Notes: generated by a model from the letters alone, not told the origin. A stretch of DNA of 64,000 nt from Flavobacteriales bacterium (GCA_028281825.1 JANQJC010000100.1:9854-73853), one strand, 5' to 3'; shown: positions 11,026 to 26,116, counted from the first letter of the stretch. Numbers and translations: made by a program.

Positions 11026-14000
11026 GTGTTTCTTCACAAGGCCATGAAAACACTATCTTTCTCTTTCAAAATATTGAGTCTATTTCATACCTTTATCCTG
11101 ATGTTTTCATCCATCAAAAAGGGTATAGCCATTGGCTGCATGCTATTTTTCGGTATGCAGTTTTGTGCATTGGCCCAGTTTGAAAACCATATTTGGTTTT
11201 TTGGCAACTCAACCACTGGTGTTCAATTCGACCAGACAACCAATCAGCCTGCTCCGTGGAATGTGCAATACACCCCTTGGGGTGGTGAGGGAACAGGTGT
11301 AGTTACTGACCCCATCACGGGGCAGTTGTTGTTTTACTCGGATGGAGCAAGGGTAATCAATGCCAACCATGTGGTGATGGCCAACGGTGGTGGTATGGTG
11401 GGCAATCCCTCCAGTGCACAGGCGGTGGCTTTTTGCCCTGTGCCAGGCAGATGTAATGAATACTATATTTTCTCCAATTCTGTAGGCTCTGGGTGGCCAA
11501 ATAGCGATGTGCGCTCTACTATCGTTGATATGAATGCCAATGGTGGCTTGGGTAATGTTCCTGCGGCAACCAAAAATATATTGGTAAGGTCAGGAGTGAA
11601 GGAAGGAATGATTATGATACCCCGCCCAGGCTTGGATGAATATTGGCTGCTGGGAACCAACCAGGCAAATGGTAGCTTTTATGTCTATAAAATTGATATT
11701 TCAGGTATCAATTTAGCTGGAACTTACACTTTTGGTAATTGCTCTTATACTTATAACATAAGATATAGCCCAGCATCAGGTAAGATATGTGTGGCTTGCC
11801 CAACGGGACAATATTTCTATACTTTGGATTTTAATGTTGCTACGGGAGTTTTGAGTAATTACCAAGTGATAGACAATATGCCCAACGCTTATGACTCAGA
11901 ATGGTCGGCGGATGGCACTAAGCTCTATTATTCGGCGTGGTCAAATGTGCAAATAAGGCAATATGATTACAACACTGGAACTATAACTCCGCTTTGGTCT
12001 TCTGCTAACTATGGCGGTGGTTTGAAAATGGCGCCAGATGGCAAGATATATCATATACCCAGCAACAATGGTACATTCTTATCTACTATTGATAACCCCA
12101 ACGCGGCAGGAGTGGCTTGTGGGTACAATCTTAATTCATACAACGCAGGAGGAGCAATTGGAGGACTCAAACTGCCAGAGGTACTAAGTGTAGATTATTT
12201 TAATATGGAGCTTACTGGTTTTTCAGAAAACGTAACTTGCAATGGTGCTGCCGATGGAAGGGCATGGGTAGATGTGGTGGGTGGTACGCCACCCTATACT
12301 TATGATTGGAGTGATGGGCAGACAACTGATACAGCTGTTGGACTTGGGCCAGGAATTTATGATGTAATTGTTACTGATGCTGTTGGATGCAGGAACATAG
12401 AGTTTATTAGTGGAGCACTGGAAATTACTGAACCTCCTGTATTGGATATCACAGCAACCATAGTGGATACGGTAAGTTGCAATGGATTGAGTGATGGCAC
12501 GCTTAATGCATCAGCAACAGGTGGCACACAACCCCATACTTACGCATGGAATACAAACCCACCACAAATTTCTCCAACAGCAACTGGAATAGGGGCAGGG
12601 CAGGTTCAAGCAGGAGTAATGGATGCAAATGGGTGTACCGATAGTGTAACTATTACGATGCCAGAGCCAACGGCTGTTTCATTAGACATTTCAGGAAATG
12701 ATGCTACTTGTTTTGGTGGTAGTGATGGTGATGCTACAGTTATAGCTACTGGAGGCAATGGAGGCTTTACTTATAACTGGGACACAAATCCAAGCCAAAA
12801 TACAGCATTAGCATCGGGCTTGGCCGCGGGGCTATATTCAGTTACAGTAACTGATAGTAAAAACTGCTCTGAAGATACTTCTATCACCATAAATGAACCA
12901 TCGGATTTAGTGCTATCCATGAGTATCGGAGCGGTATCTTGCGCTGGTGGTTCAGGAGGGACAGCAACGGTAACACCTCTTGGAGGAACACCTGGATACA
13001 CCTATCTATGGAGCACGAATCCTGCCCAGACTGCAGCTACGGCAACTAACTTACCGGCGGGAAGTTATACCGTTACAGTTACAGACGCTAATCAATGTGT
13101 TAAGACAGCAGATACAACGGTGGTTGAACCCACGCCTTTAGTTGTTAACAAGTTTGACTCAACAGATGTGAGTTGTAATGGTGGCAGCGATGGTACAGCC
13201 ACTGTAACTACCTCAGGTGGTACCATGCCTTATAGTTATACATGGACTGGCGGAGATACCGACTCGATAGGTAATGGTTTTTCAGCAGGCACAGCCACTG
13301 TAACTGTTACAGATGCTAATGCCTGTACTGAAGTGGCCACTTTTGCTATTAATGAGCCTCCTGTTCTTACAGCAACTGTGATTGACTCTGTTGATGTGAG
13401 TTGTAATGGTGGTGATGATGGTGAAGCTACAGTTCAAGAAAATGGAGGTGTCGGGCCTTACAGTTACACATGGTCCTCAAGTGGAAATGCAGCAACAGAA
13501 ACAGGATTAGCTGCGGGTACACACACCGTAACCATTACCGATGACAATGGATGTAATTCAATTGCAACGGTACTTATAGGTGAGCCTACTGCAATTGTGT
13601 TTTCGAGTTATGGAGATACAACAATTTGTATTGGGCAATCAGCAGACATGGGCACTAACACTAATGGTGGAACACCGCCGTATAGTTTTGCATGGAGTAA
13701 TAACGTTTCAGGAGCTACACAATCTGTGAGCCCGACAGTAACCACTGATTATACTGTGACGGTAACCGATGCACAGAATTGTACCGTGCCACCAGAAACA
13801 GTGAGTATTACCGTAAGGCTACCTATTACAGCTGCAGCATCTGAGCCAGATACCATTTGTGAGACATTCAGTACAACGGTGAGTGTAAGCGCAACTGGTG
13901 GTGATGGTAACTTCAGTTACTTGTGGGATAATGGTTTAAGTTCTGGCACGGGACCACACACGGTAAGCCCTGTATCCACAACTACATACACAGTTACGGT

Positions 14001-14841
14001 AACAGATGGTTGCGGAACACCTGCTGATAATGCTTCTGTAACGATATTGGTAAACCCATTGCCAGACGTAGCTTTCGAGGCTATTCCTGAAGAAGGTTGT
14101 ATGCCACTTGAAGTGGAATTCAGAAATCAAACCACTATATCATCAGGTAGTATTGCCAAGTATAATTGGAGTTTTGGTGACACAGTAACCAGTGCCGAAA
14201 CAAGCCCTGTGCATACTTATTTGCAAGATGGTGTTTATACCGTATCGCTAGTGGTAACATCAGCAGCTGGGTGTTCAGACTCATTGACTTATACTGACAT
14301 GATTACGGTATATCCTTTACCAACAGCAGGATTTACTTTTAGTCCGCCAGTAATAGATATGGCAAACCCCGTGATTGATATAAAAGATGCGAGCTCAGAT
14401 GCCATTGCTTGGGATTGGGACTTCGGAGACTTGACATTTTCCACTGAGCAAAGCCCAAGCCATGAGTACCCTGACTCGGGCTTGTATCAAATTACCCAAA
14501 TAGTTACTAACCAGTATGAGTGCACTGATACGGCAACAGATATGGTGCAAGTAGATGGGGCTTTTCTGGTATACATACCCAATGCCTTTACCCCTAGTGG
14601 TGACAGTGATAATGAGATATTCATTGAAAAAGGTATGGGCATCCAGTCAAGGGAAATGCGCATATATAACAGGTGGGGTGAGCAAGTGTTTTTTACCCAA
14701 CAGATGGATGAAGGCTGGGATGGTTTGCATCCAATAACGGCAGAACCCATGGAACAAGGGGTATATGTGTACTATCTGGAACTGCTCTCTATCCTTAATG
14801 AAAGCCACCAATACAGGGGCAAGGTATTACTCATCAGGTAG
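11026..14841 (+). CDS. Large T9SS-secreted cell-surface adhesin with SprB repeats, PKD domains and a type B (CHU_C/gliding-associated) C-terminal domain. The likely start is at 11101 (MFSSIKKGIAIG...)
   Basis: Six canonical SprB repeats (CNGxxDGxATV..GGTxPYTYxW) plus two degenerate ones are present. PKD motifs include YNWSFGDTVTSAETSPVHTYLQDGVYTVSLVVT. The C-terminal motif is PNAFTPSGDSDNEIF...IYNRWGEQVFF. A signal peptide is present. Confidence 0.8.
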   Translation: MFLHKAMKTLSFSFKILSLFHTFILMFSSIKKGIAIGCMLFFGMQFCALAQFENHIWFFGNSTTGVQFDQTTNQPAPWNVQYTPWGGEGTGVVTDPITGQLLFYSDGARVINANHVVMANGGGMVGNPSSAQAVAFCPVPGRCNEYYIFSNSVGSGWPNSDVRSTIVDMNANGGLGNVPAATKNILVRSGVKEGMIMIPRPGLDEYWLLGTNQANGSFYVYKIDISGINLAGTYTFGNCSYTYNIRYSPASGKICVACPTGQYFYTLDFNVATGVLSNYQVIDNMPNAYDSEWSADGTKLYYSAWSNVQIRQYDYNTGTITPLWSSANYGGGLKMAPDGKIYHIPSNNGTFLSTIDNPNAAGVACGYNLNSYNAGGAIGGLKLPEVLSVDYFNMELTGFSENVTCNGAADGRAWVDVVGGTPPYTYDWSDGQTTDTAVGLGPGIYDVIVTDAVGCRNIEFISGALEITEPPVLDITATIVDTVSCNGLSDGTLNASATGGTQPHTYAWNTNPPQISPTATGIGAGQVQAGVMDANGCTDSVTITMPEPTAVSLDISGNDATCFGGSDGDATVIATGGNGGFTYNWDTNPSQNTALASGLAAGLYSVTVTDSKNCSEDTSITINEPSDLVLSMSIGAVSCAGGSGGTATVTPLGGTPGYTYLWSTNPAQTAATATNLPAGSYTVTVTDANQCVKTADTTVVEPTPLVVNKFDSTDVSCNGGSDGTATVTTSGGTMPYSYTWTGGDTDSIGNGFSAGTATVTVTDANACTEVATFAINEPPVLTATVIDSVDVSCNGGDDGEATVQENGGVGPYSYTWSSSGNAATETGLAAGTHTVTITDDNGCNSIATVLIGEPTAIVFSSYGDTTICIGQSADMGTNTNGGTPPYSFAWSNNVSGATQSVSPTVTTDYTVTVTDAQNCTVPPETVSITVRLPITAAASEPDTICETFSTTVSVSATGGDGNFSYLWDNGLSSGTGPHTVSPVSTTTYTVTVTDGCGTPADNASVTILVNPLPDVAFEAIPEEGCMPLEVEFRNQTTISSGSIAKYNWSFGDTVTSAETSPVHTYLQDGVYTVSLVVTSAAGCSDSLTYTDMITVYPLPTAGFTFSPPVIDMANPVIDIKDASSDAIAWDWDFGDLTFSTEQSPSHEYPDSGLYQITQIVTNQYECTDTATDMVQVDGAFLVYIPNAFTPSGDSDNEIFIEKGMGIQSREMRIYNRWGEQVFFTQQMDEGWDGLHPITAEPMEQGVYVYYLELLSILNESHQYRGKVLLIR
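12231..13940 (+). repeat. In-frame tandem SprB-type repeats (~75-85 aa each) inside the adhesin gene
   Basis: The CNGxxDG...GGT.PY.Y.W unit recurs eight times in the translated sequence. The coordinates are approximate. Confidence 0.6.
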
Positions 14842-14886
14842 TTTTCCTATTAGTTATTTCACGCTATCTTTACGGCCATAATTATT

Positions 14887-15714
14887 ATGGCTGAAGAAGA
14901 ACAAGAAGGTAAAGACCTATCATTTCTAGGGCACCTGGAAGAGTTGCGATGGCATTTGATAAAGTCAGTTGCCGCTATAGTTCTTGTTGGTATTGTCGCT
15001 TTTTTAGCCAAAGGGATTGTTTTTGATACCATAATCCTTGCCCCTCAAAGTGAGGATTTTCCTACTTACAGGCTTTTCTGTTGGCTTTCCCATAAGTTCA
15101 ATCTCGGTGATGCCCTGTGTATCGGCAAGCCAGATTTTGAGTTGATTAATATTGAAATGTCAGGTCAGTTTACTACACATATTTTGGTGTCGATAGCTGC
15201 TGGTTTTGTAGTGGCATTTCCCTACGTGATGTTTCAAGTGTGGAGCTTTATTAAGCCAGCTTTGTATGAAGAAGAACAGAAATATGCAACTGGTGCAGTT
15301 TTTTTTACCTCTATTCTTTTTCTGCTGGGTGTAGGGTTCGGTTATTTTATGATAGCTCCATTATCAGTCAATTTCCTAGGTAACTATCAGGTGAGTGAAG
15401 CAGTGCACAACCAAATAAGCCTGAGCTCATTTATATCTACTGTTACCACGCTCACACTCTTAACGGGGCTTGTTTTTGAATTACCTGTTATCATGTATTT
15501 TTTAACAAGGGTAGGATTGGTTACTCCACACTTTTTAAGGCAATACAGAAAGCATGCACTAGTAGTACTATTGATTTTATCTGCCATCATTACCCCGCCA
15601 GATATCACAAGCCAGGTGCTGGTGTGTATTCCATTATTGATACTGTATGAGGTAAGTATTTATGTGTCAGCGGTGGTGATTAGAAACAGGGAAGAGAAAG
15701 ACCGAGGTGTATAA
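14887..15714 (+). CDS. tatC: Twin-arginine translocase subunit TatC
   Basis: LSFLGHLEELRWHLIKS is the N-terminal TatC signature. Six TM helices and ~275 aa. Confidence 0.85.
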   Translation: MAEEEQEGKDLSFLGHLEELRWHLIKSVAAIVLVGIVAFLAKGIVFDTIILAPQSEDFPTYRLFCWLSHKFNLGDALCIGKPDFELINIEMSGQFTTHILVSIAAGFVVAFPYVMFQVWSFIKPALYEEEQKYATGAVFFTSILFLLGVGFGYFMIAPLSVNFLGNYQVSEAVHNQISLSSFISTVTTLTLLTGLVFELPVIMYFLTRVGLVTPHFLRQYRKHALVVLLILSAIITPPDITSQVLVCIPLLILYEVSIYVSAVVIRNREEKDRGV

Positions 15715-15815
15715 AACAATAATAACTTCTTGCCTAAGCCTAAAAGAAAATAGTTGATTATCGCTATTTTTAGCCGATTCTTTCTTCAACCTAGCATAAC
15801 ATTTGGTGATAACCC

Positions 15816-18302
15816 GTGGGGAAACCATTTCACATACATCCATTTGTACTTAGGTGGTTTTGTTTGCTGCTGTTGTTTGTACTAGCCAACCAGGCATCTG
15901 CGCAGATAACCAAAGTAAGCGGACAGGTGGTAGACATTGAAACAGGGGAAGGGCTTTCTTTTGTAAACGTAATTTTTCAGAATTCAACCGTAGGAACCAT
16001 CACTGATTTGGATGGTTACTACAATATTGAGACATCATACCCTACTGATACACTTGTAGCTTCATTTGTAGGCTATGATGTGATGAAAATGCCAGTAGTT
16101 AAGCAAACCAAGCAAAAGATAAACTTTAACATGAAGAGCAGCACCTTTGAAATGGAGGCTGTGGTGGTTAAACCAGGGGAGAACCCAGCCCATCCTATTC
16201 TAAGGAATATTATTGCAAATAAGGACAATAACAACAAGGAGAAACTCAATTATTACCAATACGAAGTGTACAATAAAGTACAGTTTGATATCAATAACAT
16301 CACGGAGAAGTTTGAGAATAGAAAAGTGTTTAAACCCTTCAAGTTTGTATTTGACAATATAGATACTTCGGAGGTAAATGGCAAGCGCTACCTTCCTACC
16401 TTCATCACCGAATCGCTCTCAGATGTATACTACCGCAAAAGGCCTAAGTCTCAAAAAGAATACATCAAAGCGACGCAAGCATCTGGCGTGGATAATGAAA
16501 GTGTGGGGCAGTTTTTGGGAGACATGTACCAAAACATCAACATCTATGACAACTTTATATTGATTATTGGAAAGTCTTTTGTGAGCCCTATCGCCAATTT
16601 TGGTAAGCAGTATTACAAGTATTATCTGGAAGATAGTACCCATATTGGACAGCATTGGGCGTATAAAATCCGCTTTTTGCCTAAGCTCAAGCAAGAGCCT
16701 ACTTTTTATGGGGAGTTTTGGGTGGCTGATTCAACCTGGGCTATATTAAAAGTAGACATGAGAGTATCTGAGCAAGCCAATATCAACTGGGTGCAAGATG
16801 CCGTAGTGTATCAGGAGTATGATTTTGTAGCTGATAGTGCCTGGATGTTAACCAAAGATAGACTGGTGGTTGACTTTGCTGTTGGAGAAAATGGTATGGG
16901 GTTGTATGGCACCAAAACTACTACTTACCGAGACTTCAAGATTAATGAGCCTAAACCCGATGAGTTTTATTCAGGGGTGCAAAATATCATATTGGGGGAT
17001 AATGTTGATGAAAAGCCCGATGAGTTCTGGGAACAGCACAGGCATGAGGGCTTGAGTAAAAAAGAAGCATCCATATACCACATAGCGGATACTATACAAA
17101 CATTGCCAGCCTTCAAAACTTGGTACGATATTGTGAAGCTGGTAGTCAGTGGTCATTACGCAATCGGCAAGTTTGATTATGGCCCTGTCTACACCACATA
17201 CAGTTTCAATCAAATAGAAGGCCATCGCATCAGGTTAGGCGGCAGAACCAATAATGACCTAAGTACTAAGGTAAGGCTAGAAGGGTACGGCGCTTATGGT
17301 TTCAGAGACCAAAGATTTAAGTACGGTGGAGGGGTGCTTATATTCCTTTCTAAAAAACCAAGACAATTAATTGATGCCCATTGTGAATATGATATGGAGC
17401 AACTTGGGCAAAGCCAAAACGCTTTTAGGGAGGATAACCTTTTTGCTTCGTTTTTCAGGCGTAGGCCGTTTACCAAACTCTCCAGGGTAATGGACGTAAG
17501 TGGTAGTTATACTTTTGAGTGGTTCCCAGGTTTCTCACACAAGATTGGTTTTGTGCATAGGGAAATTTCACCTGCGGATACCAATTTTATTGCATACAAA
17601 TACACTGATGACAGTTTTAAGGATAATGAGATAATAACATCGGAAGCCCGCTTTGAAACACGTTTTGCCTTTGATGAAAAATTCATCGATGGTGATTTAA
17701 ATCGCTTGAGTTTAGGCACCAAATGGCCAGTTTTGCAGTTCCGTTATTCTTATGGATTAAAAGGTTTATGGGATGGCCAGTTTGAATATCACAAATTTGA
17801 CTTTAGTGTAGATGATTGGTTTAAGGTGGCGCCTGTGGGATACATATCTTATATCATCACTGCCGGTAAAACTTGGGGAACGCTGCCATTTCCACTGCTA
17901 TTCTTGCATCAGGGTAATGAGACCTATACCTATGACAGTTACGCATACAATATGATGAACTATATTGAGTTTGTAAGTGATGAGTTTGCGAGCCTTTCGG
18001 TTCAGTGGCACTTAAACGGATATCTATTAAATAAAATACCTTTGATGCGAAAATTAAGGCTGAGAGAGGTAGCTTCGGCTAAAGTGCTGACAGGGAGAAT
18101 GGTGCAAGACACTCGCTCCGTAATGGAGTTCTCTGAAGAGTTATACACCTTTGATAATGGGAAACCCTATATGGAAGTAGGAGTAGGTATAGAAAACATT
18201 TTGAACATTTTCAGGATTGACCTGGTTTGGAGACTATCCTATCTCAATCATCCAAACATAGAGCAAATAGGTATTAGAGGTAATTTCTATTTCAATTTCT
18301 AA
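15816..18302 (+). CDS. Carboxypeptidase-regulatory-like domain plus DUF5686-type beta-barrel protein (GTG start)
   Basis: Signal peptide present. A CarboxypepD_reg-like segment ([37 protein letters not shown]) is followed by a ~700 aa aromatic-rich region ending in Phe. The codon at 15816 is GTG. Confidence 0.5.
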
Positions 18303-19244: not shown

Positions 19245-20762
19245 GTGGGAGCAATAGATTGTTTTTTGTTTCTTTGTTTAGTGATGAAAATGTATGGTTT
19301 CTATATTACATCAATACTATTACTGGTCTGCTATGCATTCTCAATTTATGCACAAATTCAAAGCCCTCAAGCACCAACTTTTGGTACATTTCAAAATGTG
19401 ACAGGGCTTAATTATCCATCTCATCCAAACATGTATCAGCAACGCAATAGCAGTCATTCAATAGGGGCACATGCTAATGATGTAATAGAGCAACAATATC
19501 AGATTAGTCAACAGTATCTGGGGATGTGTATTGACAGGCCATATCTTACCCCTGCTCAAAACCAGCAAGCAAGGATAAACTTCCTTAAACAAAAAGCTAT
19601 AGGCAGCCAGTATTTGCCAGGTGCAAAGGGTGGGTTTGCACAGCAAGTAGGGATGCAAAGAGAAGTGATTAACATCCTCAACGAAGTTCAACAGGCGGAG
19701 CATGATAAAAGAAGGAATTCGAATTATTACTATTCAGCTGAATTTACCACCAAAACTAAATTATACACAGATGCTTTAAGAAAGTTGAATGACATGCTCT
19801 CGGGAAGAAGTAAACTATCCATTAAGGAAGCCTATTTCACCATAGAACAAGCCTATGGTAATTCCTATCTCACAAGAGATGAGTATGATAAAGCAGTCAC
19901 GGAATCCAGTGAGTTTATTAAAGAGTGGTTACGTCAAAATGGGTATGAACTTAAAGATAATACCGCCTTGCATTATGGTATTCAGCAATTTATGAGTGAT
20001 ACCCTAAGTATCAAAGTACCTTTAAAAGATGACGCGGCTAAAACCTATACAAAAGTGCATTTCCCTTTCTCTTATGATTACAAGGATTTTAAAGGTGAGA
20101 TGGACTACCGAAACTACTTCTCCACCAAATGCCTGGCAACGGGCTATGGGCAGTGCAATAGCTTGCCCGCGGTATATAATATCCTGGCTGAAAGTTTAGG
20201 TGCTAAGTCCTACCTTTCATTAGCGCCTAACCATTCTTTTATTAAATACCCTGACAATAAGGGGAACATACATGGTTATGAACCTACCAGCAACTGGCAA
20301 ATATCTGACAGGTGGTATGAAGAGCACCTTTTTATAAGCGCCGAAGCCAAGCGGAACAGGATATACCTGGATACATTGAATTATGAACAAATAGTGGCCA
20401 ACTGTATGCTGGATTTGGCAGTGGGCTATATGGATAAATTTGGCGTGGCCGATGGTGAATTTATAAGAGAATGCGCTCAAACGGCTTTCCCCTATTTCCC
20501 TGGTGGGAAAAATGTGCAGGTTTATATGCTCTACAGCAGTGTGCTGGCAAGGCAGTTGGAAAGGGTGATGTACGCCAGTAATATCACCACACTTGAAGGT
20601 ATAAAGCAGGTGCCTGAGGCTATGCAATTGTATCAGGCTTTAGTGCTCAATGAAAAGATGATTACCCAATTAGGGTATCAGGATATTCCTTCTCAACTTT
20701 ATGAGCAGCTAATGCAACAGCAAGAATTCAAAGGCAATGAACAAAAAAAAACAGCAAGTTGA
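19245..20762 (+). CDS. Secreted protein with a putative papain/transglutaminase-like Cys-His-Asp domain (paralog of 20823-22853). The likely start is at 19287 (MKMYGF)
   Basis: Signal peptide present. The conserved block GYGQCNSLPAVYNILAESLG...PNHSFIKYPDNKGNIHGYE aligns with GTGNCFALTSLFKIFSERLG...PGHVYIRHADDKGIKYNVE in the next gene. Confidence 0.6.
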   Translation: MGAIDCFLFLCLVMKMYGFYITSILLLVCYAFSIYAQIQSPQAPTFGTFQNVTGLNYPSHPNMYQQRNSSHSIGAHANDVIEQQYQISQQYLGMCIDRPYLTPAQNQQARINFLKQKAIGSQYLPGAKGGFAQQVGMQREVINILNEVQQAEHDKRRNSNYYYSAEFTTKTKLYTDALRKLNDMLSGRSKLSIKEAYFTIEQAYGNSYLTRDEYDKAVTESSEFIKEWLRQNGYELKDNTALHYGIQQFMSDTLSIKVPLKDDAAKTYTKVHFPFSYDYKDFKGEMDYRNYFSTKCLATGYGQCNSLPAVYNILAESLGAKSYLSLAPNHSFIKYPDNKGNIHGYEPTSNWQISDRWYEEHLFISAEAKRNRIYLDTLNYEQIVANCMLDLAVGYMDKFGVADGEFIRECAQTAFPYFPGGKNVQVYMLYSSVLARQLERVMYASNITTLEGIKQVPEAMQLYQALVLNEKMITQLGYQDIPSQLYEQLMQQQEFKGNEQKKTAS

Positions 20763-20822: not shown

Positions 20823-22853
20823 ATGAAAACCAGGCTCATCACCACCCTAATTATTGCATTGCTCAATAGCATTGCTTTTGGGCAACACCCAGCCCCATAT
20901 TTAGCAGCCAGAACTGAGCTGCAAGCCATGCTTAATGGGGATGAACCATTGAGTTATGAAAAAGCCATCTTTTTGATGGAGAATGCCTATTATGATAACC
21001 AATTGAGCTATGAAAATTATCAGGCTGTGCTGGATTTTCATACTTCTAACATTAGAGCATTTATTAAAACCAATCGGGATGCGGAATATGATTTCTCACC
21101 CACCTTACTGGAAACCGAAGAACAAAAAAAGTTGAAGTATGAAAAGGCATTAGCAAATTGGAGTATTTATACCTATATCACAGACACCCTACTATTTGCG
21201 TTTGATGATCAACGTTTCTACTTAAAAGAGCCTTTTAATTATTCTTCACAAGACCCATTTGGCACTGGTGATTGGCAAAATACACAGGTGGTTAACCTAC
21301 TTGATAATGGCACAGGCAATTGCTTCGCTCTCACTTCACTTTTCAAGATATTTTCTGAAAGATTGGGCACTGAAGCCAATATCTGCACAGTCCCGGGTCA
21401 TGTTTACATCCGCCATGCTGATGACAAGGGCATTAAATACAATGTAGAACTAGCCACCCGCTTCTTCCCCGGCACAGGCAGTTTAGAAACCCTCACCTAC
21501 ACCACTGATGAAGCGGTAAGGAACAACATATCCCTCAGGGAGTTAGATTTAAGTCAATCAGTCGCACTATGTCTCGTTTATTTAGCAAAAGGGTATGAGC
21601 ACAAGCACAACATCAAAGGCGGTGATTTTGCATTAGCATGTGCTGAACTGGCACTGCAACATGACCCACTCAACCTCAATGCCTCGCTTTTAAAAGCAGA
21701 AGTATTGGAAGAGAGAGTTATCAGTCAAAACCAGCCAGAAGAAAGTGAGGACTTTAAGGAATACGAGAAATTGATAACCTATCTATATGATTTAGGCTAT
21801 CGCGAAATGCCTTTTGAGATGAAAAGTAAAGTTATTTCAGAAATGCTAGGGGACAATGCAATATTGGCAGCTAATGATTATACACCTACACCGTTTGAGC
21901 ATTTGGGTACGAAAGAAACCAAGTATGCTACCCTTTCCTGGGGCATGTACAACGAGATACAAGAAAACAAGCCTTATGAAAAATACGGCAGAGCTATTTT
22001 TGATACTCAAAAACGAAAAATAACAGGCTTTACACAAGCTGACATACTATACAACCAATATAATTTCGACCCCGTTGTTTTTGCCCTAAGTGTGGATCCA
22101 TTGGCAAGAGATTATCCCTGGAACAGTCCTTATGCGTTTGCGGAGAATCGGGTAATTGATGGAATTGACTTAGAGGGTCTGGAATGGACAAGATTTGAGA
22201 GCACTTCTTTTGATCCAGTCCTTCAAAACTCTTCCAGTGATGAGAGATACTCCTATCAACAGCAATCAGGAGGAGTTGCTACTCTTACTCACGATTTATG
22301 GCTGGGAATACTTGACTATGAAGCTCAAAGGGGTGGAAAACAACTAGATGCTTATTATGATGGCGGAATAATGGCCATGGCGGCTGAAGGAGCAAAACAG
22401 GCTAGATTTGATTTTGCATCGGGTTTTCACTACGGAGCGAAAGATGTGGTTCCTAAGCCAGGGAGTGGTGTTTTGAAGAGTACGAATAATGCAGTTCCTA
22501 AACGTCTAGCTAGAGTAATTAACTCTGAGGATGCTTCTTCTGGTTTACTTGGAGGAAGCAACAGGCCATTTGTGACAGCTGCGGAAGATATTAGTGGAAT
22601 TAATTCAGCAGAAGGGTTGTCACAACGGTTATCTTTGTTTGATGGAGATGGAAAACTTAGACAGGGGCCTTTTAAAGTAATTGAGTTTGATACACCTTCA
22701 CAAGGGATTGCGTCACCAGTAAATATAGCTGAAGAAGGTTTTAACTCAGGTTATGTAGGTAAAGGAAAAACAGCAGGAGGTGCGAGAGAGTTCACAATTG
22801 ATAACGGCCCTGTTAAGGATTTGAAAAATGTTACCATTAAAGATATCGAATGA
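20823..22853 (+). CDS. Chimeric polymorphic toxin: secreted Cys/His/Asp-domain protein fused to an RHS-core terminal motif and an unknown C-terminal toxin domain
   Basis: Signal peptide present. The N-terminal ~360 aa is paralogous to the upstream gene. Residues ~385-450 read KYGRAIFDTQKRKITGF...SVDPLARDYPWNSPYAFAENRVIDGIDLEGL. This matches the conserved end of the RHS repeat-associated core (YYRARYYDPxxGRF...DPLAEKY.W.SPYAY..NNPI.FIDPDG). About 225 aa of unrelated sequence follows. Confidence 0.65.
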   Translation: MKTRLITTLIIALLNSIAFGQHPAPYLAARTELQAMLNGDEPLSYEKAIFLMENAYYDNQLSYENYQAVLDFHTSNIRAFIKTNRDAEYDFSPTLLETEEQKKLKYEKALANWSIYTYITDTLLFAFDDQRFYLKEPFNYSSQDPFGTGDWQNTQVVNLLDNGTGNCFALTSLFKIFSERLGTEANICTVPGHVYIRHADDKGIKYNVELATRFFPGTGSLETLTYTTDEAVRNNISLRELDLSQSVALCLVYLAKGYEHKHNIKGGDFALACAELALQHDPLNLNASLLKAEVLEERVISQNQPEESEDFKEYEKLITYLYDLGYREMPFEMKSKVISEMLGDNAILAANDYTPTPFEHLGTKETKYATLSWGMYNEIQENKPYEKYGRAIFDTQKRKITGFTQADILYNQYNFDPVVFALSVDPLARDYPWNSPYAFAENRVIDGIDLEGLEWTRFESTSFDPVLQNSSSDERYSYQQQSGGVATLTHDLWLGILDYEAQRGGKQLDAYYDGGIMAMAAEGAKQARFDFASGFHYGAKDVVPKPGSGVLKSTNNAVPKRLARVINSEDASSGLLGGSNRPFVTAAEDISGINSAEGLSQRLSLFDGDGKLRQGPFKVIEFDTPSQGIASPVNIAEEGFNSGYVGKGKTAGGAREFTIDNGPVKDLKNVTIKDIE

Positions 22854-23266
22854 TGAGAACACTGATTGAAGGAGAAGAATTTTACCAATTAAAAAAAGAC
22901 CTAAAAGAAGTCAAACGATTTCCTGCTAGGTATATTACTTTTTATATTAGAGAGAATGGAGAAAAATGGGTTCAGGATAAACCACACCCCGAACTTCATG
23001 GTGGAGGTCTATCTAGACTTACATTAGTAGATAAATTTCCTGATTTTGAAAATACAGAATGGAGTTCAAATGAATATTATGGGCAAGAGGCCTTTATTTT
23101 TATTGAAGAACAATTGAAGCTAGTCAAACAAATTCCTGATGAGAGAATACGATACTATATTGATAAAGAAGGACAAAAGTGGGTTGAAGAATATGTCTCA
23201 AATCTCAAAACGGATGGTAATCTGTTATGTTGGATACATACTATAGATGAGTTTCCATGGGAATGA
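22850..23266 (+). CDS. Putative cognate immunity protein (138 aa, internal two-fold repeat)
   Basis: Its start overlaps the toxin stop (ATGA at 22850-22853). The protein is acidic and cytoplasmic-looking. It contains the repeated segment R.I.FYIRENGEKWVQD / RIRYYIDKEGQKWVEE. Confidence 0.5.
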   Translation: MMRTLIEGEEFYQLKKDLKEVKRFPARYITFYIRENGEKWVQDKPHPELHGGGLSRLTLVDKFPDFENTEWSSNEYYGQEAFIFIEEQLKLVKQIPDERIRYYIDKEGQKWVEEYVSNLKTDGNLLCWIHTIDEFPWE

Positions 23267-23474
23267 ATATTCTTATTAAAAACGGATTTAGAAATATTTC
23301 GGAAACTGAAAAGAGCAGTATTATCCTTATTTGCAAGGAAATAAATGGTGTAGTGGAGAAGAATAATGTTATTGAAATTAGTCCAAATGAAAAAATTAAA
23401 AACCCTCCGTCTTCATCAACTGTATAATAAAGTCTGGAATATTGGTAATGTATCAGATTAGTTGACGGGCATAA

Positions 23475-23732
23475 AAACAAAATATAAAGAGATTATATTG
23501 CAGGCTTCCAAGGCATAGAGAAAGCGAAAACGGCAGGCAAAATTTTAAAGGAACTCCTATACAAAAGAATTTGGATAGAGATGAATTTCCACCTGCAATA
23601 ATTAAGACTGATAAGGCATATAGTGTAAAACATACACCCTCAAATGATAATAGAAGTGCCGGACAATCAATCGGTCAACAATTGAAGGGTTTTCCTGATG
23701 GAACAGTCATTAAAGTGGTCCCTGAAGAATAA
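23475..23732 (+). pseudogene. Orphan C-terminal toxin fragment (no start codon; stop-to-stop ORF ...NGRQNFKGTPIQKNLDRDEFPPAII...GFPDGTVIKVVPEE)
   Basis: An ~85 codon ORF without ATG lies immediately upstream of a SUKH-1 immunity gene. This is the classic orphan toxin-tip/immunity arrangement. Confidence 0.4.
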
Positions 23733-24336
23733 AAGAACTATGAATAATCTTATAAGAAGTATGGATTTTAGCTTTAAGAAAGAAAAAATTCAATTGAATT
23801 TTAAGGTGGAAGATGAAAGCTATATTCAATTTTTAAACGAAACAAATGGAGGAAGTTTTTACTCGCAAAGTATTATGTTTTATGGAATTGATACTGGAAT
23901 AAATTGTTACGATATAAATGAAGTAAATGATTTTCTGAGCCGAGTGTATGGAAAAATTTTTACGGGGATATCGATTGGTTGTGATGTTTTTGCGAATCAG
24001 TTTCTGATTAAAGAAAAAGACATTTATTTGTTTAACATTGAATCAGGAACTCTTGAGTTTATAGCGCGAGGGTTTAAAGATTTTGCTGACTTATTGGGTG
24101 AAGATTGGGAGTATTTATCAGGATATCAATACCTTAACCAATGGCAGAAAATAAATAATTCCTTGGGTAAATGTTGTAGGCTCTTGCCTCTCAAACCTTT
24201 TATTATAGGTGGAGAGTTTGATGTAAAACAAATGATAAAGTATGATTTCTTTGACACCTTAAGGTATAATTCTAAGCTTGCTAAGCAAATTTATGATTTA
24301 CCAGATGGACAATCTGTAGAAATTAAGTGGGAATGA
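23698..24336 (+). CDS. SMI1/KNR4 (SUKH-1) family immunity protein. The likely start is at 23740
   Basis: Diagnostic motif YIQFLNETNGGSFY (SUKH-1 FL..NGG signature). The size is ~200 aa. Confidence 0.65.
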   Translation: MEQSLKWSLKNKRTMNNLIRSMDFSFKKEKIQLNFKVEDESYIQFLNETNGGSFYSQSIMFYGIDTGINCYDINEVNDFLSRVYGKIFTGISIGCDVFANQFLIKEKDIYLFNIESGTLEFIARGFKDFADLLGEDWEYLSGYQYLNQWQKINNSLGKCCRLLPLKPFIIGGEFDVKQMIKYDFFDTLRYNSKLAKQIYDLPDGQSVEIKWE

Positions 24337-24362
24337 CTTCAAAAGAGTAATGTGATAGAAAA

Positions 24363-24608
24363 ACTCTTAGTGCAGGAAAAGGTGAGGTTGTTGATCATGA
24401 TCCTCCATTAGTGAAACGTTATTATGAGGGTGACCCTGTAGTAGGAGAAAAACCAGGTTATCAAATGAACCAAAGTGAGCGTTTAAAAAGCGCTAATGAT
24501 AGGACTCGAATGGCAAACCAGCCTACATCAGAGTCCAACAAGCAGGGTGGGGAAATGTCAAATTATTCTAAACAAAAAAAGCAAGAATATTTTAATAATG
24601 ATGAATAG
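24363..24608 (+). pseudogene. Orphan C-terminal toxin fragment (no start codon; ...KGEVVDHDPPLVKRYYEGDPVVGEKPGYQ...)
   Basis: An ORF without an initiator ends by overlapping the start of the next candidate immunity gene. The xVDHxxPL-like motif is reminiscent of HNH-type toxin tips, but the match is weak. Confidence 0.4.
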
Positions 24609-25182
24609 AATGTACCTTAATGAGATGGATTATCAGAATAGTATTATTCAACATTATACAGGTTTTTGGAAAAAGAACCCAAGTTTTTATTATTGGAGTG
24701 AGGGTCCAGTTACTGACCTATCACCTGTTTTTAGGGTACTTGAATTTCCTCCTAATGATATTCATAAAATGTGGACTTATGCGACTTGTTGCATGTCAAA
24801 TATGAATGATCCTAACCCAGTCGAATTGCATTTATTTTCATCAGTTCAAGATACTTCTTTGACAGAGTTGCTCACTATAGTTGCGCATTATCATAAAACA
24901 GGAAGTCCCATTAATTTAGACCATACCATAAACTTCGGAAGACCCTGGCAGAATAGATCAAAATGTGAATATGGATTAGTATCCTTACCATATTTGGATG
25001 GACCAGAACTTGAAAATTTCGAATTAAGTGATAAACAGAAAACAGTGAAATTTTACTGGTTAATACCTATTACTAAGAATGAAGTTGAGTTCAAGAAACT
25101 AAATGGCATAGAACAATTGGAGCAGGAATTTGATAACAAAGAATTTAACTATTTAGACCCTTTGCGTGAGAGTGTGGTTTAG
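24598..25182 (+). CDS. Putative immunity protein (approx. 195 aa, possibly SUFU-like/Imm family); start at 24598, 24601 or 24610
   Basis: It sits directly after an orphan toxin fragment. It is acidic, aromatic-rich and cytoplasmic. The family call is from memory only. Confidence 0.5.
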   Translation: MMNRMYLNEMDYQNSIIQHYTGFWKKNPSFYYWSEGPVTDLSPVFRVLEFPPNDIHKMWTYATCCMSNMNDPNPVELHLFSSVQDTSLTELLTIVAHYHKTGSPINLDHTINFGRPWQNRSKCEYGLVSLPYLDGPELENFELSDKQKTVKFYWLIPITKNEVEFKKLNGIEQLEQEFDNKEFNYLDPLRESVV

Positions 25183-25336
25183 GTAGTGAATCCCTCAGTT
25201 CAATCTAAAAAAGGCGTTTCTGCTAATATGATCAGGTTGAAGACTAATTCTGAACAAATTATATCAAAATGAACCTAAAATTATATTTAGAAGAATTGAT
25301 GGGGATTTTATGTGGTTTAAAGAGGCCTTTATGTAA

Positions 25337-25483
25337 TCTACTAATGGAAGGGTTACTCAAGAAAACATCAATGCTATTTTTAAGAATGTAAGCTTTAATG
25401 GTGGTAATAAAGCTAATGTGGGCAATCCAAGACCACAGTTATATGATAAAGAGAAAGGTTTTAGAGTAGTACAAGAAAAATGA
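25337..25483 (+). pseudogene. Short orphan toxin-tip remnant (48 codons, ...NAIFKNVSFNGGNKANVGNPRPQLYDKEKGFRVVQEK)
   Basis: The ORF has no ATG. Its TGA overlaps the ATG of the downstream lipoprotein gene (ATGA at 25480-25483). Confidence 0.25.
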
Positions 25484-25833
25484 TGAAAATTATAGTATTC
25501 TTGAGTTTGACACTCGTTTTTTTAGGGTGTGGTGTGAGACAAGATGTCATGTCGAATAAGTTTAATAAGAAAAGATGGCTTTCTAGTTCGAATTATAGAT
25601 ATGAGATTGTTAGTCATGAAACCTTTCCTAATCTTGAAGGAAAGACAAAAAAGTACGTAAAAAGAGTATTAGGAAGGCCAAACATTATCCAAGATAATAG
25701 GTTTATCTATTGCCTGGATATATTAGATACAGAGGACTCTGATTTACCTAAGTGCAAGGGATCCTCAATAGTTATAGACTTTGACACTAACCCTTATAGT
25801 GTCACTATTATTAACGTTGAACCAAAAAATTAG
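25480..25833 (+). CDS. Small lipoprotein (117 aa), candidate immunity protein
   Basis: Signal peptide with lipobox (FLGCG). It is the last gene of the toxin/immunity array. Confidence 0.45.
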   Translation: MMKIIVFLSLTLVFLGCGVRQDVMSNKFNKKRWLSSSNYRYEIVSHETFPNLEGKTKKYVKRVLGRPNIIQDNRFIYCLDILDTEDSDLPKCKGSSIVIDFDTNPYSVTIINVEPKN

Positions 25834-25864
25834 GAAGTATAAAAAGTCTCCCCTTAGGTGAGAT

Positions 25865-26116
25865 TTAGAGGGGCTGTACCTCAAAAGCATAGCTCTCCAT
25901 AATGGCGTTGGCAAGTAGTTTTTTGCAAGCTTCTTCCACTTTGCTCTCGGCGGTAGCCTTGTCGGCAGCTTCTATTTCAAGTGTGATGTGTTTGCCGATG
26001 CGCACGTTGTCTACTTCTGGCAGGCCCAGGTTCTTCATGCTTGAAGTTACGGCTTTACCTTGTGGGTCCAACAATTCTTTCAGGGGCATCACATCAATTT
26101 CAGCTTTGAATTTCAT
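25865..26116 (-). CDS. purS: Phosphoribosylformylglycinamidine synthase subunit PurS
   Basis: 83 aa; MKFKAEIDVMPLKELLDPQGKAV...GKHITLEIEA is the typical PurS sequence. Confidence 0.85.
   Translation of the reverse strand: MKFKAEIDVMPLKELLDPQGKAVTSSMKNLGLPEVDNVRIGKHITLEIEAADKATAESKVEEACKKLLANAIMESYAFEVQPL

Follow-up and report, generated by a model that had tools for sequence, protein, structure and literature searches.

The stretch of DNA considered here, referred to throughout as the window, comprises 64,000 nucleotides (nt) from a Flavobacteriales bacterium (GCA_028281825.1, JANQJC010000100.1:9854-73853). Between 19.2 and 25.9 kb, its + strand carries a compact row of genes in the same orientation (Table 1). 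An active pair, consisting of a full-length polymorphic toxin and its predicted immunity gene, is followed by three units, each made up of a toxin remnant and an immunity gene. This orphan array is best read as a series of truncated toxin ends whose immunity genes were retained, and not as a stock of usable toxins.

Table 1. Genes and remnants of the toxin locus, in the order in which they are encoded; positions are counted from the first letter of the window (aa: amino acids; ORF: open reading frame).
Feature	Position	Strand	Basis or remark
Partner: 505-aa secreted paralog of the carrier body	19245..20762	+	Context, outside the orphan array
Full-length polymorphic toxin, 676 aa	20823..22853	+	Signal peptide, transglutaminase-like body, junction, Ntox10 tip
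Tandem Imm27 protein, 138 aa; predicted immunity gene of the active toxin	22850..23266	+	Pfam; ATGA overlap
54-aa ORF	23263..23427	+	Start overlaps the Imm27 stop (ATGA)
Fragment 1, putative NucA/NucB-like DNase tip end	23475..23732	+	Homology 23505-23726
SUKH (SMI1/KNR4) predicted immunity gene, intact, 198 aa	23740..24336	+	Pfam and cognate pairing
Fragment 2, putative tip end without Pfam model	24351..24608	+	Homology 24354-24590
SUFU-family predicted immunity gene, intact, 194 aa	24598..25182	+	Pfam SUFU and cognate pairing
Fragment 3, putative HExxH tip end	25337..25483	+	Homology 25340-25474
Lipoprotein predicted immunity gene, intact, 117 aa	25480..25833	+	Lipobox and cognate pairing

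The active unit appears to be a Sec-exported carrier with an Ntox10 tip, accompanied by an Imm27 immunity gene. The signal peptide of the toxin is followed by a transglutaminase-like body of about 450 aa with an invariant GNC167...H193 (Cys167, His193), and by a junction motif, VVFALSVDPLARDYPWNSPYAFAENRVIDGIDLEGLE, encoded at about 22074-22184. The Ntox10 tip (22479-22820) is recognised by Pfam with 76.8 bits and an expectation value (E) of 2.7e-21, against a cut-off of 26.8 bits. Directly downstream and in the same orientation, a gene whose start shares an ATGA with the toxin stop codon encodes a protein with an isoelectric point (pI) of 5.0, which contains two Imm27 stretches (36.8 bits, E 3.7e-9; cut-off 27.3). 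A candidate immunity gene overlapping the toxin in this manner had already been proposed in an earlier reading of the window (the sequence-only reading). The pair agrees with one already on record: the Ntox10 entry in Table 2 of Zhang et al. 2012 (PMC3482391) lists this domain for Bacteroidetes, with a type II secretion (signal peptide) route, Imm27 as the primary immunity protein and an association with transglutaminase domains.

Behind this pair, the sequence-only reading described three ORFs without initiator codons and interpreted them as orphan toxin tips, each with its own immunity gene. All three frames exist when defined stop-to-stop on the + strand, although the middle one opens at 24351 and not, as first given, at 24363. 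A stop codon directly precedes each frame, and in none of the three fragments does the toxin-homologous stretch begin at or close to an ATG, GTG or TTG; internal starts are present (TTG 23571, GTG 24411 and several ATGs).

For fragment 1, an exhaustive HMMER scan of 1.84 billion proteins gave 548 matches at E<=1e-3, the best at 8e-16, and the matched proteins include RHS/DUF6443 proteins of 1,100-3,900 aa. Fragment 1 alone reaches 13.4 bits with the DNase_NucA_NucB profile (PF14040, cut-off 23.8). Among its full-length relatives, two (P0220, 33.3 bits; P0244, 24.1 bits) pass this cut-off, while P0157 (22.9 bits) and others fall just under it; comparison with toxin profiles had been suggested as a check in the sequence-only reading. 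The alignment indicates that fragment 1 keeps the last 70 or so residues of a domain of about 125 aa. The N-terminal part of about 55 aa (about 45%), containing the 'IDGxKHPESAxH...VDRxG' half, is absent, and so is the junction.

Fragments 2 and 3 were searched with HMMER against 5.8 billion proteins, with the three fragments concatenated as one query. Fragment 2 gave 22 matches (E 9e-29 to 1.6e-13 for the concatenated query), with 57-71% identity over the fragment; it resembles the last 80 or so residues of these 22 proteins, some of which have an Rhs-associated core. The complete domain has about 100 aa and begins with 'PYNRxxHYGxTPTxxDR', and the copy in the window begins at 'DR'. About 80% of the domain, including an invariant DH, is therefore kept, without the conserved N-terminal 'PYNRxxHYGxTP'. 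Neither Pfam nor NCBIfam contains a match for this tip family, and a sequence profile search of the PDB with the tip alignment was empty. An AlphaFold model of the family has a predicted local distance difference test score (pLDDT) above 90 over the domain and places the invariant Asp-His at the end of a strand; the tip probably has an HNH/beta-beta-alpha-Me fold.

In the case of fragment 3, three matches were obtained (E 3e-9 to 3e-7 for the concatenated query), with 72-79% identity to the ends of three RHS-core carriers (P0023-P0025). It also resembles the ends of P0053 (74% identity) and P0035 (49%), both of which belong to the carrier family of the toxin in the window. Only the last 46 aa of a tip of about 225 aa are present, about 80% of the domain being gone, and in the alignment the HExxH motif ('HELNHGYGG') lies upstream of the retained part. 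The complete tip, with 'HELNHGYGGxNK', occurs in P0023-P0025, P0035, P0053 and at 12524-13156 of locus L031, and is a putative zinc peptidase. Pfam has no match for fragment 3 or for its full-length relatives.

In nearly all cases the homology extends to within 15 residues of the C-terminus of the matched protein (144 of the 150 matches listed for fragment 1, 21 of 22 for fragment 2 and 5 of 5 for fragment 3). The possibility that the fragments are chance ORFs was rejected on the basis of the E-values and of this C-terminal position. Each fragment thus appears to be the C-terminal end of a toxin domain that is found at the tips of full-length polymorphic toxins. Full-length toxins ending in each of the three tips exist in other genomes; a look for such toxins was among the checks suggested in the sequence-only reading. 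A search for frameshifted upstream toxin parts in the array (tblastn with 21 full-length tips at a lax E-value) returned nothing beyond the one expected match per tip.

The genes that follow the remnants had been described as small acidic or lipoprotein genes, and their products have pI values of 4.8 (SUKH), 5.1 (SUFU) and 9.0 (lipoprotein). Cognate pairing was examined on contigs with full-length toxins bearing each tip type (L007, L004, L005, L003 and L002). The SUKH protein contains the FLxxxNGG motif (as FLNETNGG) that had been noticed in one of the followers, and matches SMI1_KNR4 (PF09346) with 23.3 bits (E 1.1e-4; cut-off 25.4). Over 181 aa it shares 36% identity (E 1.6e-33) with the product of a gene directly after the NucA-like RHS toxin P0157 on L007; this homolog is likewise a weak SMI1_KNR4 match. 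The SUFU protein matches PF05076 with 58 bits (E 1.4e-15; cut-off 25) over profile positions 6-171 of 172, and shares 52% identity (E 2e-70) with the product of the SUFU gene directly after P0009 and 41% (E 6e-43) with that of the SUFU gene after P0010; both of these toxins bear the fragment 2 tip. The lipoprotein, with the lipobox LVFLG|C, resembles the products of the genes directly after P0024 (49% identity, E 1e-28) and P0053 (35%, E 2e-14); further copies follow the HExxH-tipped carrier of L031. In all three cases the length is close to that of the homologs (198 vs 209 aa, 194 vs 185-191 aa and 117 vs 122-132 aa, respectively).

Genes and remnants are tightly packed. The stop codon of fragment 3 and the start codon of the lipoprotein gene overlap in an ATGA, and fragment 2 overlaps the SUFU gene by 8-11 nt, given a start at ATG 24598 or 24601. 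For the SUKH gene, the start is most likely ATG 23740, 7 nt past the stop of fragment 1, rather than the overlapping ATG 23698. This leaves stop/start overlaps in two cases, the number given in the sequence-only reading. The homology of fragment 2 begins 18 nt past the SUKH stop codon, and the gaps between each remnant and the preceding immunity gene measure 14-155 nt.

On the strength of these gene neighbourhoods, the SUKH, SUFU and lipoprotein genes can be assigned as immunity types cognate to the toxin types of fragments 1, 2 and 3, respectively, which bears out the proposal that the followers are the fragments' own immunity genes. In PMC3482391, SUKH is recorded together with Tox-NucA, and SuFu with HNH-fold nucleases. 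NCBIfam has no match for the immunity genes, and the small lipoprotein family that accompanies the HExxH tip is likewise without a model. Three testable pairings result: NucA-like with SUKH, probably HNH-like with SUFU, and the unmodelled HExxH tip with the lipoprotein.

Orphan toxin-immunity modules have been described in detail for cdiA-CT/cdiI and rhs-CT/rhsI (CT: C-terminal region; Poole et al. 2011, PMC3150448). Like these, the array in the window consists of 3' fragments without start codons arranged behind a full pair, each fragment having an immunity gene, and the fragments are related to the tips of full-length toxins in other bacteria. The classic orphans known from rhs and contact-dependent inhibition (CDI) loci usually retain a demarcating motif (VENN, or in Rhs proteins PxxxxDPxGL) and the whole active toxin domain, often with homology upstream of it (PMC3150448). 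In contrast, the array in the window has neither the junction nor carrier homology nor the fronts of the toxin domains. A hidden Markov model (HMM) of the junction, searched over the six frames of 22850-25900, gave nothing meaningful (best E 0.14, 0.9 bits), tblastn with the carrier body found nothing in the array, and a search for DNA repeats common to the main gene and the array, which could serve as recombination handles, returned short matches at chance level only.

This difference is relevant to the question of whether the fragments are reserve cassettes that can be recombined onto the carrier, switching the deployed toxin in the manner of the Salmonella orphan Rhs module. Orphan modules of rhs and cdi loci are functional, and one of them is activated by recombination (PMC3150448; PMC3967940); that fragment 2 has about 80% of its domain and the invariant DH in place also speaks for this reading. 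However, this fragment is without the nearly invariant 'YNRxxHYGxP' residues, fragments 1 and 3 have lost about 45% and about 80% of their domains, the latter with its HExxH motif, and the array shares no junction motif, carrier sequence or DNA repeat with the main gene. A silent arsenal of this kind is very unlikely. The toxin remnants look dead, and would not easily be recombined back, because start codon, junction and complete domain are all missing; only the immunity halves look functional. The sequence-only reading is thus borne out in its essentials; its word 'stockpile', however, goes too far for units in which junction, domain fronts and DNA homology to the main gene are absent.

The carrier itself belongs to a large family. 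The alignment with its 476 relatives covers no more than the first 62-79% of the query (for most of them 63-68%); they come almost entirely from Chitinophagales, Flavobacteriales and other Bacteroidota, and 56 related loci were found among species-representative genomes. Given this origin of the relatives, and SprB/CHU_C-type proteins in the flanks, the host is taken to belong to the Bacteroidota. In an alignment of the family (A1), conservation extends to G452, through 'FDPVVFAWxIDPLAxxYPxxSPYxFxxNNPIxxxDxDG', and the sequences are unalignable beyond this point. The tips include Peptidase_M91, an EC869-like CDI nuclease, Tlde1 and Hint-containing domains. The comparison indicates a family of polymorphic toxins, in which a constant N-terminal body bears wholly different C-terminal domains.

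Pfam gives only a weak Transglut_core2 match for the carrier body. The 676-aa protein has no RHS_repeat match in Pfam and no Rhs_assc_core/TIGR03696 match in NCBIfam (E<=0.1), and the carrier is not an RHS, CdiA or MAF protein. The sequence-only reading had called it non-canonical, and in this sense the description is accurate; it does not extend to a wholly unknown carrier, since the junction corresponds to the last part of the Rhs core and the family has its entry in PMC3482391. The 33-residue junction HMM matches the extreme end of the Rhs-associated core of Bacteroidota RHS toxins. Like these Rhs/YD-repeat toxins, which are composed of DUF6443, RHS repeats and core, the carrier has the last 33 or so core residues ('DPLxxxYPxxSPYxxxxNNPxxxxDPDG') before its tip, and the two groups have tips in common, for example the HExxH domain. 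Unlike them, it lacks RHS_repeat and TIGR03696 matches, so that there is no evidence for an RHS shell or for the part of the core responsible for aspartyl self-cleavage. Since the same HExxH tip follows a common junction, 'DPDG[RE]SG', on both RHS-core and transglutaminase-like carriers, an exchange of tips between the two carrier types is suggested.

The product of the partner gene directly upstream is related to the carrier body as a paralog: the two share 27% identity over carrier residues 26-340 (E 2e-25), and Pfam again finds no more than a weak Transglut_core2 match. In essentially all of the related loci fetched, the gene immediately preceding the carrier is a homolog of the partner, and the two genes look like a conserved unit. 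Neither the carrier nor the partner has a match in NCBIfam, and a sequence profile search of the PDB with the carrier alignment was empty. A search of the available literature found no description of the carrier family beyond the 2012 table entry in PMC3482391. The transglutaminase domains mentioned there are catalytically inactive and precede RHS repeats; in the family of the window, by contrast, RHS repeats are missing and both Cys167 and His193 are invariant. A further feature of this family, its conserved upstream paralog, goes unmentioned in the passages of that source that were consulted.

It may be asked whether the novelty of the locus lies in the array or in this two-gene unit, which may be widespread in Bacteroidota and might represent a new export or delivery route. 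The latter is a tentative suggestion, and rather doubtful at present. If true, it would amount to an undescribed toxin route without an RHS shell, a type VI secretion system (T6SS), CdiB or a type IX secretion signal, whose carrier trades tips with RHS toxins via a common junction. A large and uncharacterised carrier family with a conserved partner may in any case deserve its own study.

The array is most plausibly explained by successive replacements of the tip on a constant carrier, with the old immunity genes being kept; a rough probability of 0.75 is assigned to this reading. Each new cassette of tip and immunity gene would have recombined onto the carrier with the far crossover falling inside the resident toxin domain, so that, downstream of the incoming cassette, the 3' part of the displaced toxin gene survived together with its complete immunity gene. 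The likely mechanism would be homology-facilitated illegitimate recombination, as modelled for immunity arrays of Vibrio T6SS loci. The tight junctions, such as the 18 nt between the SUKH stop codon and the homology of fragment 2, fit displacement and favour it. The array also has a foreign composition, which counts in its favour: from the Imm27 gene onward, the fraction of G+C (GC) is 0.29-0.38, whereas the carrier has 0.41 and the flanks have 0.42-0.44. The SUKH, SUFU and lipoprotein genes would most likely be read through from the toxin operon, and a scan of the + strand from 22853 to 25480 revealed no terminator-like sites, its counts being equal to those of shuffled controls. The retained genes may protect against neighbours that fire toxins of the NucA-like, HNH-like and HExxH types. 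That the fragments are toxin C-termini, that toxins and immunity genes are paired, that the remnants are truncated and that the carrier is polymorphic is directly supported; the succession of the replacements and their mechanism, expression of the array and any protection by it are what we infer.

A closely similar arrangement is known from the T6SS clusters of Vibrio cholerae (Kirchberger et al. 2017, PMC5361080), in which an incoming module displaces the effector while the old immunity gene stays. As in these clusters, old immunity genes are found 3' of the current pair, in some cases together with the 3' part of a displaced effector gene, and the orphan immunity genes match those of complete pairs elsewhere. 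Unlike the T6SS effectors of this proteobacterium, the toxin in the window is a fusion protein with a Sec signal, encoded in a member of the Bacteroidota, and no T6SS genes occur in the neighbourhood of the locus. In polymorphic toxin loci more generally, cassette arrays with adjacent immunity genes have a median of about one active toxin to three cassettes, according to PMC3482391. The array is accordingly a new example of a well-described phenomenon that is expected at such loci. The retained-immunity pattern has been described earlier for Vibrio T6SS, rhs and cdi loci; here, old immunity genes are kept behind a swapped tip in a Bacteroidota family outside RHS, CDI and T6SS.

Remnant and immunity units recur in the carrier family, given one such remnant in locus L013 and partial carriers in several loci. 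In L013, the carrier is followed, at 13181-17998, by an immunity gene of the leucine-rich repeat type and then by the last 57 residues of another tip, which the carrier of L014 and other family members have in complete form. After this remnant come a homolog of the L014 immunity gene, a 189-aa gene and a second carrier without N-terminus. The three-unit array of the window is the longest among the loci fetched. Loci L042, L053, L055 and L060 each have two or three partial carriers in which junction motif and tip are kept, and which are nearer to the classic orphan type than the fragments of the window. An apparent orphan in L014 was rejected, as it proved to be an entire lipoprotein gene with a match to the end of P0049.

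The second or partial carriers downstream in L013 (16037-17998), L042, L053, L055 and L060 would also suit a different origin, in which complete carrier-toxin genes once stood in tandem and deletions spared only the toxin ends and the immunity genes. No trace of a carrier body or junction is present between the units of the window, however, and the spacing of 14-155 nt fits insertion or displacement better than three independent clean deletions, so that decay of tandem genes deserves hardly any credence.

The displacement history need not be that of this lineage. The Ntox10 tip, the Imm27 gene and the whole array might have been acquired in a single recombination, in which case the replacements took place in the donor; such an alternative route is reported in PMC5361080, and all units from the Imm27 gene onward have the low GC in common. 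The Ntox10 tip, on the other hand, has the GC of the carrier body and not that of the array, no donor locus was found among the related loci fetched, and the original formation of the array would still have to be explained. An import en bloc is therefore considered unlikely.

Several points weigh against replacement in place. The locus is present in one genome only (the window and an identical Logan contig, L001), and a genome scan found no locus more than 57% identical; the order of events is therefore not derivable by strain comparison. The tip of fragment 3 is present on full-length members of the carrier family (P0053, P0035 and L031), whereas those of fragments 1 and 2 were met only on RHS-type proteins, and on none of the 120 closest carrier relatives listed or the 56 loci. 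All three fragments remain open throughout the homologous stretch, and most of the domain persists in fragment 2, which leaves room for some residual constraint or use. Scans for promoters and terminators gave the same counts as shuffled sequences, with a sigma-70 consensus that fits Bacteroidota poorly, which makes them uninformative. Finally, the whole array could have arrived in one transfer instead of being built in place.

The 54-aa ORF between the Imm27 gene and fragment 1 matched only itself in 5.8 billion proteins and has no family match at curated cut-offs; it could be a genuine small gene, a remnant in decay or simply noise. In L014, a serine recombinase gene (13617-15296) follows the last gene of the toxin-immunity locus at a distance of about 600 bp, which hints that some of these toxin loci travel on mobile elements. 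In the window, the locus is bordered by housekeeping genes, with ABC ATPase and DUF5686 genes upstream and, on the opposite strand downstream, purS and a CDP-alcohol phosphatidyltransferase gene; SprB/CHU_C-type proteins are also encoded in the flanks.

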